Virus record (IMG/VR): IMGVR_UViG_2526164598_000023
Length of the DNA: 38,064 nt
Source: a virus
Lineage: Duplodnaviria; Heunggongvirae; Uroviricota; Caudoviricetes
Reading direction: 5' to 3' (one strand)
Shown here: one piece after another, positions 1 through 36,688 of the stretch
Position numbering within the stretch: the first letter of the stretch is position 1
Layout: every line of letters starts with the position of its first letter
Translations under genes and position numbers: made by a program
Notes under the pieces: model-generated
What the model was told of the DNA's origin: nothing
What the model saw: only the letters and a program-made list of their open reading frames with translations
Databases searched by the model: none

Positions 1-573
1 TTACATTTCAGGTTGCGTTATGACAGTCCCAACAGGGTGGTAGCGGTAGATCGTTGACAGTCCAATATCATAGATAATTGCCAGCCGCTTTCTGTCATAC
101 CCTTTCTGGAGCAATCTTGCGATCTGCTCATGCTGCTCCTTCGTCAGTTTCGGGCGACGTCCTCCAACTCTCCCTTGTGCTCGCGCAGCAGCCAGTCCTG
201 CCAGCGTGCGCTCAACTATCAGTTCACGCTCCATTTCTGCCAGTGCACCCATCATATGAAAAAAGAACCTTCCCATCGGAGTGCTGGTATCGATTGAATC
301 CGTCAGACTGCGAAAATTGACACCTTTTGCGCGTAGCTCTTCTGTGAGAGCAATGAGGTGTTTCATTCTTCTACCCAACCGATCCAGCTTCCAGACCACC
401 AATGTATCCCCTCTTTTAAGGCACTTTAAAGCGCGTTTCAGGCCTGGTCGTTCCGACTTGGTTCCGCTCATTTTGTCCTCAAAAATCTGTTCACATCCTG
501 CGCACATTAATGCATTGCGTTGCAAATCTGTGTTTTGGTCATTTGTTGACACACGTATGTAGCCAATCAGCAT
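1..573 (-). CDS. gin: Serine DNA invertase, Gin/Pin/Hin family (complete, 190 aa)
   Basis: From ATG at 571-573 (minus) the translation begins MLIGYIRVSTNDQNTDLQRNAL, the serine-recombinase catalytic N-terminus, and continues through GDTLVVWKLDRLGR and a C-terminal HTH. AGGGAG-type RBS just upstream; stop at 1-3. The longer track ORF 1..768 is an unsupported upstream extension. Confidence 0.93.
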   Translation of the reverse strand: MLIGYIRVSTNDQNTDLQRNALMCAGCEQIFEDKMSGTKSERPGLKRALKCLKRGDTLVVWKLDRLGRRMKHLIALTEELRAKGVNFRSLTDSIDTSTPMGRFFFHMMGALAEMERELIVERTLAGLAAARAQGRVGGRRPKLTKEQHEQIARLLQKGYDRKRLAIIYDIGLSTIYRYHPVGTVITQPEM

Positions 574-627
574 TAAAAATACTCCCTTTTGAGTGGTTAA
601 AGTACTGAGATAATGTGGGGAGGATTT

Positions 628-653
628 GAGAGATAAACGTTGGTTTGGGGGAA
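628..653. other. hix/gix-like 26-bp recombination site 1, inverted relative to sites 2 and 3
   Basis: Minus-strand reading is TTCCCCCAAACC-AA-CGTTTATCTCTC. Left half and core match the remembered hixL TTCTTGAAAACC-AA-GGTTTTTGATAA. It sits exactly at the boundary where homology between the fibre cassettes begins. Confidence 0.55.
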
Positions 654-771
654 GGCTCTGCACTGCCCGTTGGTGTGCCTGTTCCATGGCCCTCAGCCAC
701 ACCACCAACGGGCTGGCTGAAATGTAACGGTGCAGCATTTTCTTCTGAAATGTACCCCAATCTGGCAAAGG
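642..771 (+). repeat. About 130-bp block, near-identical inverted copy of 2070..2199
   Basis: Reverse complement of 642-771 matches 2070-2199 with a single mismatch by eye. The third copy (2584..2713) has about 8 mismatches. Confidence 0.8.
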
Positions 772-1120
772 CCTACCCCACCAATAAATTACCGGATTTA
801 CGCGGTGAATTTATCCGTGGCTGGGATGATGGGCGAGGAATTGATGCGGCACGCGCTTTATTGAGCATTCAAAACGGGATGTTGGAAAAACACCGCCATA
901 TTGTTGTAGCTAACGATGGATATGACACAAAAGATGAATGGGAGTTGGCTACGATTTTCAAAAAACATATACACAAGGCAGGGGGCTTGATGCCACAAAT
1001 ACAGGAGGGAGTTTGATTCCATCACCAACGCTTCATTCACGAGGAAGTATTGGTAACACAGGTGGTAGTGAAACCCGCCCCCGCAATATTGCATTTAACT
1101 ATATCGTGAGGGCGGCTTAG
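645..1120 (+). pseudogene. Silent tail-fibre C-terminal cassette V3, frame-disrupted
   Basis: Begins at the conserved block with no start codon of its own (in-frame TGA at 627-629). The conserved N-terminal part is in one frame (645..1016) and the conserved C-terminal end ETRPRNIAFNYIVRAA is in another (938..1120). An A6 run (960-965) and a G5 run (981-985) lie in the overlap. Confidence 0.55.
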
Positions 1121-1126
1121 TTATAT

Positions 1127-1738
1127 TCAACTGGCTGCTGCCAGTGGTATTTCCGGCAAGTTGATATCTGGTACCATGTTTATATCCATTGCGTTCAGCG
1201 CGTCTATATAATCCAGCACGGCATTAAGCCGGGTGGTTTCTGCCTGCGTCAACTTCCGCCCGGCCTGCAACTTCAACTGAATCAGACTTATGGAAGCCAT
1301 TGCCGCATCAGCCAGTGACTGGCGCTTGGTTTCTGCCGCTTCTACTGCGGCACGATGTTGTGCCTCAGTATCTGTCACCCATTTTTCACCATCCCATTTA
1401 TCGTATGGTGTTAACGGGGCGATAGTGGTTGTAGTTTTCGGGTAGTCACCCAGCGCCGTGATTTCTTCGGTGTTTCCCGTGTCAGTGCTATAGACGGTTT
1501 CACCACGATGGTCTGGCGCATACTCCCATGAACTTAAATTCTCCGAACGGCGGATAGCATAGCCCGCTTTATGTGCGCCCGGGGCATCTAAACAGGAATT
1601 TGCCGGAATACCGACACCCACAGCAAGATATTCAGTTGATTCGGAAATATATTCCCGTGTCTCACCATCATAGTTATAAACGACGATGTTTCCTGCCTGT
1701 ACGGCAATAAGGTCATCATTTAATATCGCGTTATTCAT
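1127..1738 (-). CDS. Tail fibre assembly protein (Tfa, Mu U / P2 G-like), 203 aa
   Basis: C-terminal region SLADAAMASISLIQLKLQAGRKLTQAETTRLNAVLDYIDALNAMD is the typical tail-fibre chaperone domain. Its ATG overlaps the V2 cassette stop as ATGA (1735-1738). Confidence 0.85.
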   Translation of the reverse strand: MNNAILNDDLIAVQAGNIVVYNYDGETREYISESTEYLAVGVGIPANSCLDAPGAHKAGYAIRRSENLSSWEYAPDHRGETVYSTDTGNTEEITALGDYPKTTTTIAPLTPYDKWDGEKWVTDTEAQHRAAVEAAETKRQSLADAAMASISLIQLKLQAGRKLTQAETTRLNAVLDYIDALNAMDINMVPDINLPEIPLAAAS

Positions 1739-34716: not shown

Positions 34717-35396
34717 CAGACTTGGATAAACACATTGAAAAACTGAAAAAGTTGCTGGCGCTGGCAGCATCCGGCAACCCGTATGAGGCTGCTCTGGCAC
34801 TGCGCCGCGCCCGTAAACTGATGGATGTTCACGGCATCACACATTCCGACATTGCCATGAGTGATATTGATGAAACCATCAGTCATTACTGGCCGACAGG
34901 CAGTCTCCGTCCACCGCGCTACATGCTGGGCCTGATGAACATCATCCGCGAGGCATTTGGTGTTAACTCCATAATTCACCCCGGCACATATCCGGGTGTG
35001 GGGTTCTACGGCAACCGGGAACGGGCCGCACTGGCTGCGTACACCTGGGAAGTGCTGGCCCGCCAGCTGAAAAAGGCGCGTCAGCAGTATATCAGCGCAC
35101 AGAACAAAAGAATAAAAACTGCCACCCGTACCAGCCGTGGTGACCAGTTTGCTGAAGGCTGGGTGCTGGCCGTTATCAGTGAAATACAGTCCTTCGCCCT
35201 GACCGATGACGAACGTGAACTGATGCAGCAGTGGCTGGAACATAAATACCCGCAGACGCAAACCACCAGGGCGCGTAAACCGGGAAGAAGCCGCAATGGC
35301 GACGCCTCGCGCTATGCGGGGTTTCGTGAAGGGCAGAACGTCAGACTGCACCGCCCGGTCAGTGGGCAGGAACAACAGAAACTGGAGGCCAGATGA
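34713..35396 (+). CDS. Conserved phage early protein (DUF2786-like N-terminus), 227 aa
   Basis: N-terminus IEKLKKLLALAASGNPYEAALALRRARKLM. Confidence 0.5.
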   Translation: MTDLDKHIEKLKKLLALAASGNPYEAALALRRARKLMDVHGITHSDIAMSDIDETISHYWPTGSLRPPRYMLGLMNIIREAFGVNSIIHPGTYPGVGFYGNRERAALAAYTWEVLARQLKKARQQYISAQNKRIKTATRTSRGDQFAEGWVLAVISEIQSFALTDDERELMQQWLEHKYPQTQTTRARKPGRSRNGDASRYAGFREGQNVRLHRPVSGQEQQKLEAR

Positions 35397-35623
35397 TTAC
35401 GCTATCAGGTAACAGCCGGAAATTAAAAGCCTGCCGAATATCTGCCAGATACCTTTTTGCCCGCGCCTTTTTTAAGAACGTAAGGCCGGGGATCACAATT
35501 GGTGTTATTGCCGGACGCGAACAGGTTGAAAAATACATGTCAGGTGCATGGTGGAATAACGACCCTGTCATTGCTGCCCGTAATATTCATATCAGTTGGG
35601 GGGATATTCAGAATGACGGCTGA
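35393..35623 (+). CDS. Hypothetical protein, 76 aa
   Basis: ORF overlapping the start of the next gene. Confidence 0.4.
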   Translation: MITLSGNSRKLKACRISARYLFARAFFKNVRPGITIGVIAGREQVEKYMSGAWWNNDPVIAARNIHISWGDIQNDG

Positions 35624-35828
35624 ATCTGTTGTATGTGCCCTGTTCTGGTATTGTTTTGTCGGTTGGTGTACTGCTGAACTGCACCGCCGTTCAGGGTTTT
35701 ATTCACGTTACAGTGGTGCCGGCTACTGGATTAGCTGGTCGGTGATGTTCCTGTGCTGGCCTGTGGCGCTTCCTTTATATGTCGATTATATCGGTGGCGC
35801 AGGTAAAAGGAGCAACGATGATGACTAA
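35613..35828 (+). CDS. Small membrane protein, 71 aa
   Basis: ATG 35613; two hydrophobic helices (VCALFWYCFVGWCTA and WISWSVMFLCWPVALPLYV). Confidence 0.45.
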   Translation: MTAESVVCALFWYCFVGWCTAELHRRSGFYSRYSGAGYWISWSVMFLCWPVALPLYVDYIGGAGKRSNDDD

Positions 35829-36270
35829 ACAACGTCTTATCCAGCTCATTCATATTGCCCGTAATGAACTGGGTATGGATGAAGACACCTACCGCCAGAT
35901 GTTACAGGGGCTGACCGGTAAAGCCTCAACCAAAGGAATGGATACCACACAACTAAACTGCGTGCTGGAATCCATGAAAAGGAAAGGCTTTCGCGTTAAG
36001 CCTGCCAGAAAAGCCAGCTCCGGTTTACCGCTGGATAACCATCCGCAGTCCAGGAAAATCCGTGCGCTATGGCTTGAAATGGCTGCTGCCGGCATTGTTC
36101 GTGACCGTTCAGAAAATGCATTAGCGCGGTGGATCAAGCGGGAAACGGGCATCAGCGCCCTGCGCTGGCTCAATACTGAACAGGCAAGCAGTGTTATTGA
36201 GAAACTGAAGAAGTGGCAGCACAGAGCTGCGGGAGTAAAACATGAGCGACCTGAATCAGTTTCGAAGTAA
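35818..36270 (+). CDS. gemA: GemA-like regulatory protein, 150 aa
   Basis: MMTKQRLIQLIHIARNELGMDEDTYRQMLQGLTGKAST resembles Mu GemA; GGAG RBS. Confidence 0.65.
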   Translation: MMTKQRLIQLIHIARNELGMDEDTYRQMLQGLTGKASTKGMDTTQLNCVLESMKRKGFRVKPARKASSGLPLDNHPQSRKIRALWLEMAAAGIVRDRSENALARWIKRETGISALRWLNTEQASSVIEKLKKWQHRAAGVKHERPESVSK

Positions 36271-36631
36271 AGGGCCGGAACTCCTGGTGGAACTGGCACA
36301 GCATACCTCTGAGACCGTTCGCGAGATTATTGATATTGAGCCCGCAATTGCCGACCAGATTGGTCAGGCCGTCGCGAACCGCATGATGCAGGTCTGGGGC
36401 GGGCAAAACGTTTATTTCCCGATGGGCATGGTATGGAAGGTCAGTCAGCGCGACCGGGAAATCTTCAGGGAGTTTAACGGACGTAACCACCATGAACTGG
36501 CCCGCAAATTTGGTGTTTCGCTTCAGTGGGTCTACAGCGTGGTTAAGCGGGTAAGAAAAGAAGAACTGGATCGGATGCAGGGCAAGCTATTTGCTGATGA
36601 ACCCGATGTAGATACGGAGAAAAAAGAGTAA
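36242..36631 (+). CDS. mor: Mor/C-family transcription activator, 129 aa
   Basis: Same length as Mu Mor; C-terminal HTH ELARKFGVSLQWVYSVVKR; GGGAG RBS. Confidence 0.8.
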   Translation: MSDLNQFRSKGPELLVELAQHTSETVREIIDIEPAIADQIGQAVANRMMQVWGGQNVYFPMGMVWKVSQRDREIFREFNGRNHHELARKFGVSLQWVYSVVKRVRKEELDRMQGKLFADEPDVDTEKKE

Positions 36632-36659
36632 TATCTGCAATCAGGCTGGAGCGAGTTCT

Positions 36660-36688
36660 GTTTTTTTCGGGCCGGTCTGATTTTCACA
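36660..36688. mobile_element. Putative prophage terminus with Mu-end-like transposase-binding repeat, ending CA at 36687-36688
   Basis: Read inward from 36688 the sequence is TGTGAAAATCAGACCGGCC-CGAAAAAAAC, resembling the Mu left end TG...CGAAAAAAACC as I remember it. Confidence 0.35.

Follow-up and report, generated by a model that had tools for sequence, protein, structure and literature searches.

A BcepMu-type transposable prophage of Escherichia coli with the divergent gene layout of the BcepMu/B3 group and a single Mor/C-family activator gene

We analyzed the 38,064 nucleotides of the caudoviricete record IMGVR_UViG_2526164598_000023 from IMG/VR (hereafter the window, meaning the whole stretch at its full length). 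A prophage of E. coli strain E30 that is 99.8–100% identical to the window was used as the annotation reference, and six-frame open reading frames (ORFs) checked against its Prokaryotic Genome Annotation Pipeline (PGAP) annotation gave 53 phage genes and one host gene. The window carries an essentially complete transposable myovirus prophage of the BcepMu type (Bcepmuvirus-like), ~36.87 kb long. Gene calls and the PGAP annotation agree on its layout. Genes g03 to g34 (1127–24819), from the tail fibres back to the holin, lie on the minus strand together with the invertase gene g01 (1–573), all 15 genes from g39 to g53 (28609–36631) lie on the plus strand, and a Dam methylase gene (plus), two accessory genes (minus) and a CI-type repressor gene (28113–28520, minus) separate the two arms. 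The initial annotation had described minus-strand late genes and plus-strand early genes diverging from a central accessory/repressor region, which these data confirm; its statement that the late genes are all on the minus strand holds for g03–g34 and g01 but not for two plus-strand genes in the late half, at 645–1016 and dam. The components of the two arms are as follows.

2207–5376, minus: late block 4, with baseplate gpW, gpJ and gpI and the tail fibre (same order as BcepMu gp49–gp52, 49–63% identity)
5431–11445, minus: late block 3, with tail assembly chaperones, tape measure, gpU, gpX, gpD and gpV (collinear with BcepMu gp41–gp48)
11543–17359, minus: late block 2, with head protease/scaffold, major capsid protein, head-tail connectors, tail sheath and tail tube (collinear with BcepMu gp32–gp40)
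17574–24819, minus: late block 1, with holin, SLT endolysin, spanin, small membrane proteins, TerS, TerL, portal, and Mu F-like and G-like proteins (collinear with BcepMu gp21–gp31)
28113–28520, minus: CI-type repressor (Pfam HTH_3 and Phage_CI_repr)
28537–28564, plus: candidate early promoter Pe, TTGACA-16-TACAAT (sigma-70, 11 of 12 consensus matches)
28609–36631, plus: early operon (Pfam; PHROGs transposase and DNA transposition protein)
30064–31833, plus: g42, rve-family DDE transposase, Tn552/IS1604-like (Pfam rve; 69% identity to BcepMu gp09)
31844–33010, plus: g43, ExeA-like AAA+ transposition ATPase (Pfam AAA_22/AAA_16; 59% identity to BcepMu gp08)
33310–33840, plus: Gam (62% identity to Mu Gam)
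35821–36270, plus: GemA (36% identity to Mu GemA)
36242–36631, plus: g53, Mor-family activator, last gene of the early operon (54% identity to BcepMu Mor)

All window proteins were compared by tblastn with BcepMu (NC_005882), Mu and Klebsiella phage KP12. The products of g06–g34, on the minus strand, matched BcepMu positions 11555–33077 on the plus strand, and those of g40–g53, on the plus strand, matched positions 368–7959 on the minus strand, in unbroken order in both cases; because both arms are collinear with BcepMu on opposite strands, the window corresponds to BcepMu in reverse complement. The collinear set comprises 40 BcepMu proteins at 31–76% identity (63% for TerL). The likeness to BcepMu-type phages noted in the initial annotation was borne out by this unbroken series and by terminal sequences that match end for end. 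BcepMu shares the whole architecture, with mor at the tip, an early operon running outward, a central repressor, and lysis, head and tail genes running the opposite way. In both elements, the transposase is of the rve/Tn552 type and has an ExeA-like AAA+ partner, the contractile tail is P2-like, and one Mor homolog is present. In the tail module, the sheath is 76% and the tube 67% identical to BcepMu, and gpU, gpX, gpD, gpV, gpW, gpJ and gpI are 46–63% identical to their BcepMu counterparts (gp39–gp51 are annotated there as P2-like). The closest known system was taken to be BcepMu grouped with phiE255 (genus Bcepmuvirus).

Unlike BcepMu, the E. coli element carries two Mu-like modules, namely a Gin invertase with an invertible fibre segment, and Gam; BcepMu has no invertible G region (PMC2628397), encodes an acyltransferase at the tail end and has different accessory genes. 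The repressor occupies the place of BcepMu gp17 and of B3 ORF18, and no similarity between the repressors of BcepMu and the E. coli element was detectable by tblastn.

Closer relatives have been isolated as phages. Escherichia phage PhiKM (PQ738613), placed in Bcepmuvirus by the NCBI taxonomy, shows 99% nucleotide identity to the window in the late arm and 94.5% in the early arm, and Klebsiella phage KP12 (OM835952) shows 86–87% with the same gene order. These two, Escherichia phage Phi06_2974 B and the prophages of 475 complete E. coli genomes represent the same phage type as the window, within which the dam-to-repressor slot, the state and content of the fibre cassettes, some small early ORFs and the insertion sites differ. 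The layout also recurs in the siphovirus B3, where the early operon is inverted and mor lies at the tip (124–486, minus). B3 shares the transposase family (57% identity), the AAA+ partner, the DUF3102 protein, GemA and a single Mor homolog, but has a different tail module; the beetreviruses include Fc02 and JBD25, and the inversion of the early operon in B3-like phages has been stated in print (PMC5977238). This transposase is carried by 69 isolated-phage records, including Pseudomonas phage B3 and many relatives.

The ends of the element were placed at nucleotide resolution on the right and through sister prophages on the left. The junction in the window, compared with those of three other E. 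coli genomes, showed that the phage sequence ends in ...GTCTAATCA, closing with the letters ...TAATCA at position 36792, which corrects the end at 36688 given previously; mor is indeed the last gene before it, stopping 161 bp short. The terminal repeat GAGATAAATG sits 12–21 nt from this tip. By comparison with E30, where the complete element measures 36,871 bp, the left end lies 78 bp further left than position 1, where the invertase gene has its stop codon; only those 78 bp are missing from the window. The fibre-proximal end, TGATGCGCCGCGCGATAAATG, was seen only in identical sister prophages such as that of E30, and the left tip of the window's own copy is predicted to start TGATGCGCC.... Both tips have homologs in BcepMu: TGATTAGACTTGAGATAAATG in the window against TGAAGAGAGGTGAGATATTTC next to mor, and TGATGCGCCGCGCGATAAATG in the E. 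coli element against TGAAGCGCGGCGCGATATTTC next to the fibres. The TG...CA termini of the element are likewise common to BcepMu, for which this feature has been cited (PMC2628397).

36632–36792, plus: Mor-proximal phage end, with the tip ...CA at 36792 (junction comparison between the window and three other genomes)
36793–36798, no strand: predicted copy of the 6-bp target duplication, CAGAAA (from the pattern in three sister prophages; the left partner lies outside the window)
36820–38064, minus: intact host gene tnaB, low-affinity tryptophan permease (annotated match; ORF of 414 amino acids)

The prophage is located 27 bp past the tnaB stop codon. Three sister copies each break a different host gene (an EAL-domain gene, a solute:sodium symporter gene and hycH) and are flanked by the 6-bp duplications GCAGAC, CCTTGC and TCTGTT, which, with the site near tnaB, makes four different insertion sites. 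Such TG...CA ends with 6-bp direct repeats are the signature of transpositional insertion, and Tn552-type transposases give duplications of 6–7 bp. A 5-bp duplication as in Mu was considered and rejected: the first two junction pairs are ambiguous, as both duplications end in C, and the third, TCTGTT, gives 6 bp.

The relationship with Mu is of another kind. Homologs were found in Mu for Gin (76%), Gam (62%), TerL (49%), F (47%), the portal, G, GemA (36%) and Mor/C (31–37%), and the further matches were fragments of baseplate and fibre proteins only; the late-gene matches have a relative orientation opposite to that of the early-gene matches. The initial annotation described the layout of Mu correctly: c, on the minus strand, occupies the left end, all other genes are on the plus strand, and gin is near the right end. 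D108, compared over the first 11 kb of its annotation, shows the Mu layout and both Mor and C in that part. Relative to Mu and D108, exactly the repressor-to-Mor block is inverted, and the invertase keeps its Mu-like place beyond the late genes. The window departs from Muvirus in three respects. Its arms diverge, whereas Mu has its repressor at the left tip and the remaining genes collinear; its transposase and ATPase are not detectably similar to MuA and MuB (g42 and g43 had no tblastn match to Mu A or B at E ≤ 1e-3); and it has one activator where Mu has Mor and C. Mu also has its own tail module where the window has a P2-like one, and its target duplication is 5 bp against 6 bp. Both are temperate transposable myoviruses of similar genome size with an invertase and a fibre segment beyond the late genes, but this last feature, also typical of Muvirus, is a shared module and not evidence of membership.

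We then considered how widespread the layout is. Of 5,426 complete E. coli genomes, 475 carried the late arm at a coverage of at least 80%, and the chromosomal site differed among them. In other bacteria, a survey by transposase alignment with one genome per species gave 246 relatives, the best 80 of which were examined; these belong to Enterobacterales, Burkholderiales, Neisseriales, Rhodocyclales, Pseudomonadales and others. Among them, TerL was detected in 62 loci and in 59 of these lies upstream of the transposase on the other strand, Mor and GemA lie downstream on the same strand (68/68 loci where detected), and the repressor lies upstream on the opposite strand (68/68 again). In Pasteurellaceae, BcepMu-like prophages form a recognised supercluster (PMC6776037), and E. 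coli of sequence type 131 (ST131) has been reported to carry a Bcepmuvirus prophage (bioRxiv 10.1101/2022.05.07.487787). The three loci with a non-standard layout are L032 (JAGTRJ010000008.1, 1–21737, a Burkholderiaceae metagenome-assembled genome), L038 (NZ_JACIGE010000002.1, 1–21731, Rhodocyclus tenuis) and L067, with transposase identities of 63–68% for the first two and 54% for the third. A locus of Pseudomonas carbonaria that had been taken as collinear proved to have the standard divergent layout upon full protein comparison, its plus-strand TerS match being spurious.

The divergent layout is already known: it is the normal, described arrangement of the BcepMu/B3 group of Mu-like phages, found in BcepMu, KP12, PhiKM, B3 and 59 of 62 relatives, that is, a routine arrangement in a well-described family. 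Because the window is collinear with BcepMu, KP12 and PhiKM and its end sequences are homologous end for end, the layout is ancestral to a large clade and not a private rearrangement. The internal rearrangement envisaged in the initial annotation holds in a historical and family-wide sense, as the repressor-to-Mor block is inverted compared with Mu, but it is not an event in this prophage. We put the probability of the full explanation, a BcepMu-type prophage in the standard BcepMu/B3 layout run by a cascade of repressor, early promoter and single activator, at roughly 93%.

The single activator was examined with a Mor/C profile built from Mu Mor, Mu C, BcepMu gp01, the KP12 homolog and g53, and searched against six-frame ORFs of at least 40 amino acids. 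As the initial annotation had noticed, the window contains exactly one such protein (E = 4e-66; the next best match has E = 0.58). The profile found one match each in BcepMu and KP12 and two in Mu, the positive control, and B3 is annotated with one Mor homolog. One activator is a property of the family, where Mu and D108 have two. The g53 product is about equally similar to Mu Mor (31%, E = 1e-15) and Mu C (37% over 79 amino acids, E = 1e-14).

The early genes are ordered as a Ner-like helix-turn-helix (HTH) protein, an IclR-like HTH protein, the DUF3102 protein, the transposase, the ATPase, Gam, small ORFs, GemA and the Mor-family activator. Pe is the best sigma-70 match between 24400 and 29300 and lies in the 88 bp that separate the repressor gene from the first early gene; its spacer carries the inverted repeat ACACAC...GTGTGT, which could be its operator, making Pe a plausible early promoter with an operator as judged from its sequence. 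In a lysogen, the central CI-type repressor would keep this strong promoter (28537–28564) shut; upon induction, it would drive the 8-kb rightward early operon, supplying regulators, the Tn552/rve-type DDE transposase and its AAA+ partner as presumptive functional analogs of MuA and MuB, Gam, GemA and the activator. As the last product of the early operon, the single Mor/C-family activator would then turn on, in trans, the four late units that run leftward (lysis-packaging, head-sheath, tail and baseplate-fibre); a conserved TTAA-N6-TTAAWAT element stands in front of each. Such a cascade would have two steps, compared with the three of Mu (early to Mor to C to late). The general programme finds experimental support in the B3-like phage Fc02, where strand-specific RNA sequencing after repressor inactivation showed that the reverse-strand pE operon, from ner to mor, is transcribed first and that three forward-strand late clusters then come on sequentially (PMC9936078).

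Gam is patchily distributed. It is absent from BcepMu and KP12, and L032 has a homolog with 58% identity, which points to module-level exchange between Mu-type and BcepMu-type phages.

The element ahead of the late units, YTAA-N6-TTAAWAK (TTAA-N6-TTAAWAT), heads all four late blocks, in intergenic gaps and on the late strand.

24871–24887, minus: TTAACGCTGTTTAAAAT, heading the holin (lysis-packaging) block
17416–17432, minus: CTAAAGCAGATTAAAAT, heading the head protease block, in a 214-bp gap
11499–11515, minus: TTAATCTCCTTTAATAT, heading the tail chaperone block
5409–5425, minus: TTAAACGCCTTTAATAT, heading the gpW (baseplate) block, immediately upstream

The pattern YTAA-N6-TTAAWAK has 6 matches in the window against 0.04 expected, four of them at the heads of late blocks. 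It was also found at the homologous gaps of KP12 and BcepMu, in the latter at three of the four. Two tests were independent of the sites from which the pattern was drawn, the survey of the relatives upstream of their holin genes and the junctions of L032. In the first, 33 of 51 other relatives had the motif on the sense strand in the 220 nt before the holin gene, most of these carriers 54–73 nt from the gene; its density there was 34 times that of the background, and the N6 varied between fixed flanks. In the second, the only two exact matches in the 21.7 kb of L032 fell at the two predicted junctions and on the predicted strands (15436, plus; 3740, minus). At all four window sites, a −10-like NAWACT follows 24 nt downstream, which, if it served as a −10, would centre the TTAA-N6-TTAA dyad near −42; the C site of Mu is TTAT-N6-ATAA, centred near −43.5. 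The motif may be a late promoter or a binding site of the Mor homolog, and from this pattern we infer that the single homolog would directly switch on the four late units.

A fifth copy of the motif (413–429, minus) lies inside the invertase gene and is present in KP12 too. Each of the late-block leaders at 24820–24870, 17360–17415 and 5377–5408 (minus), before the holin, protease and gpW genes, was seen by eye to contain a short GC-rich hairpin that overlaps or abuts the ribosome-binding region, such as GGGGGCA-ATAC-TGCCCCC immediately ahead of the ATG of gpW and GTCTCC...GGAGAC ahead of that of the holin gene.

Several observations weigh against the explanation given here. The comparison of 6 matches with 0.04 is circular, as the pattern was derived from the very sites first counted. 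B3 has no copy of the motif even if one mismatch is tolerated, nor do the late promoters of Mu carry it, and so it is not a general Mor/C signal; as it is also absent from more distant relatives, those whose holin is under ~60% identical, it may be specific to one lineage. It contains a −10-like TAAWAT, by which the candidate binding site could be part of a core promoter. An intrinsic terminator was sought after mor (36632–36819) and none was detected, so early transcription would run out of the phage end; it would then converge on the 3′ end of tnaB. Lastly, the window's own left junction is missing, and insertion by transposition is shown only for the sister copies.

One alternative is that the motif is not the site of the activator but a core −10 or extended promoter element or the signal of another factor (for example a nucleoid protein of the host, or one of the IclR-like and Ner-like early regulators), in which case the Mor homolog would act through other, unrecognised sites. 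Its 3′ half, TAAAAT or TAATAT, makes a good −10 hexamer, a motif centred near −42 would place the transcription start of the gpW block almost on the ATG, and B3 does without the motif despite its Mor homolog and identical layout. However, the two TTAA halves are conserved one helical turn apart around a varying spacer, resembling a dimer site, the NAWACT stands at a fixed 24 nt at all four sites, no −35 hexamer is present, as expected of activator-dependent promoters, and the C site of Mu has a similar form. We regard this alternative as less likely than not, though it is the most serious of those considered, and retain the Mor homolog as the candidate ligand of the motif.

As regards the origin of the layout, a recent private inversion that flipped the early or late half of a Mu-like collinear genome is very improbable. 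The opposite orientation of the invertase, portal, TerL and F-like and G-like homologs relative to gam, gemA and mor, compared with Mu, would fit such an event, as would an encoded invertase that looks active from its sequence. However, the same order and strands occur in BcepMu, KP12, PhiKM, B3, hundreds of E. coli genomes and, in other species, 59 of 62 loci, and the transposase is not MuA-like, with no match to Mu A at the threshold given above. As the terminal repeats by mor and by the fibres match the corresponding BcepMu ends, the ends must have co-evolved with the layout, and synteny has already refuted this explanation. Weaker still is the possibility that the assembly is at fault or that two partial prophages were fused head to head, suggested by the sharp drop in GC (guanine and cytosine) content at 25–28 kb, where the strands switch, and excluded since the complete genomes of E. 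coli E30 and DLI.5a carry prophages with 99.8–100% identity and contiguous coordinates across the junction, isolated phages show the same contiguous arrangement, the sister copies have one TG...CA pair, one 6-bp duplication and the 36,871 bp of a single phage genome, and the low-GC segment is a variable accessory slot with other genes in KP12 and BcepMu.

Outside the late blocks proper, the distal end of the late arm is formed by the invertase gene and its substrate segment.

1–573, minus: g01, Gin-family serine DNA invertase (Pfam Resolvase and HTH_7; 76% amino acid identity to Mu Gin)
635–2718, no strand: invertible multi-cassette tail-fibre segment (inverted repeats I1/I2, 90–91% complementary)
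645–1016, plus: silent inverted tail-fibre cassette (gene calls)

A repeat of 223–237 nt occurs in three copies, that at 635–871 being inverted relative to those at 1970–2206 and 2496–2718. The segment holds at least three alternative fibre C-termini, in g02 (plus), in g04 (minus) and in the 3′ part of g05, but just a single assembly gene for tail fibres (g03); g02 and g04 begin with an identical peptide. The E30 prophage, otherwise identical, has the segment in a different arrangement, suggestive of active switching or of cassette turnover.

Between the arms lies the accessory region.

25067–28042, no strand: low-GC accessory (moron) region (GC 0.42–0.44 against ~0.57 elsewhere)
25067–25837, plus: Dam-type orphan methylase (Pfam MethyltransfD12)

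It also contains g36 (minus), a protein of 401 amino acids and unknown function (PHROG 5023), and g37 (minus), an NA37/NdpA-like nucleoid-associated protein (Pfam NA37). By tblastn, both are absent from KP12 and BcepMu, which have other genes in this variable slot between the lysis genes and the repressor. PADLOC run on the accessory genes returned the methylase and a weak KwaA-like match to the C-terminus of g36 (E = 8e-5) only, and no defence system could be named; g36 and g37 may be moron or defence cargo. No match to Rfam at the gathering thresholds was obtained anywhere in the window.

Finally, the few rearranged relatives bear on how such layouts may change. In L032 and L038, the lysis genes, TerS and TerL (and the portal in L032) directly follow mor on the same strand, and the head and later genes lie beyond the early block on the opposite strand (the protease in L032, the capsid protein in L038); in L067, the spanin and TerS are also downstream of mor. 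Phage KS10 has its early and late blocks rearranged relative to Mu, with an internal repressor, and its late region is split, the lysis, terminase and portal genes diverging from the early operon and the protease-to-tail genes following mor; it has a different transposase type and lacks TG...CA ends (PMC2628397). The split in L032 and L038 is the mirror image of that in KS10. The four layout types (Mu, BcepMu/B3, KS10 and split-late) can be derived from one another by inversions with breakpoints at the phage end, the Mor-lysis gap and the G-protease gap, and the last two carry the late motif; the coincidence of breakpoints with motif-bearing gaps is observed, and that such gaps favour or tolerate inversion is speculation. 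A joint reading would hold that, in the Bcepmuvirus lineage, the partly palindromic motif ahead of each block is the site of the single activator in a two-step cascade, that whole-block inversions are tolerated because each block is autonomous and activated in trans, and that the layouts are related by inversions at promoter gaps. We offer this combination tentatively and think it has less than an even chance of being right in all its parts.

Annotations should name the element BcepMu-like rather than Mu-like, with TG...CA ends, a 6-bp target duplication and its right end at 36792. Prophages of this type are common in E. coli, ST131 genomes among them. The late motif and the split-late layout of L032 and L038 may be new, and these by-products provide small, testable leads on late-gene regulation and the tolerance of rearrangements in transposable phages.

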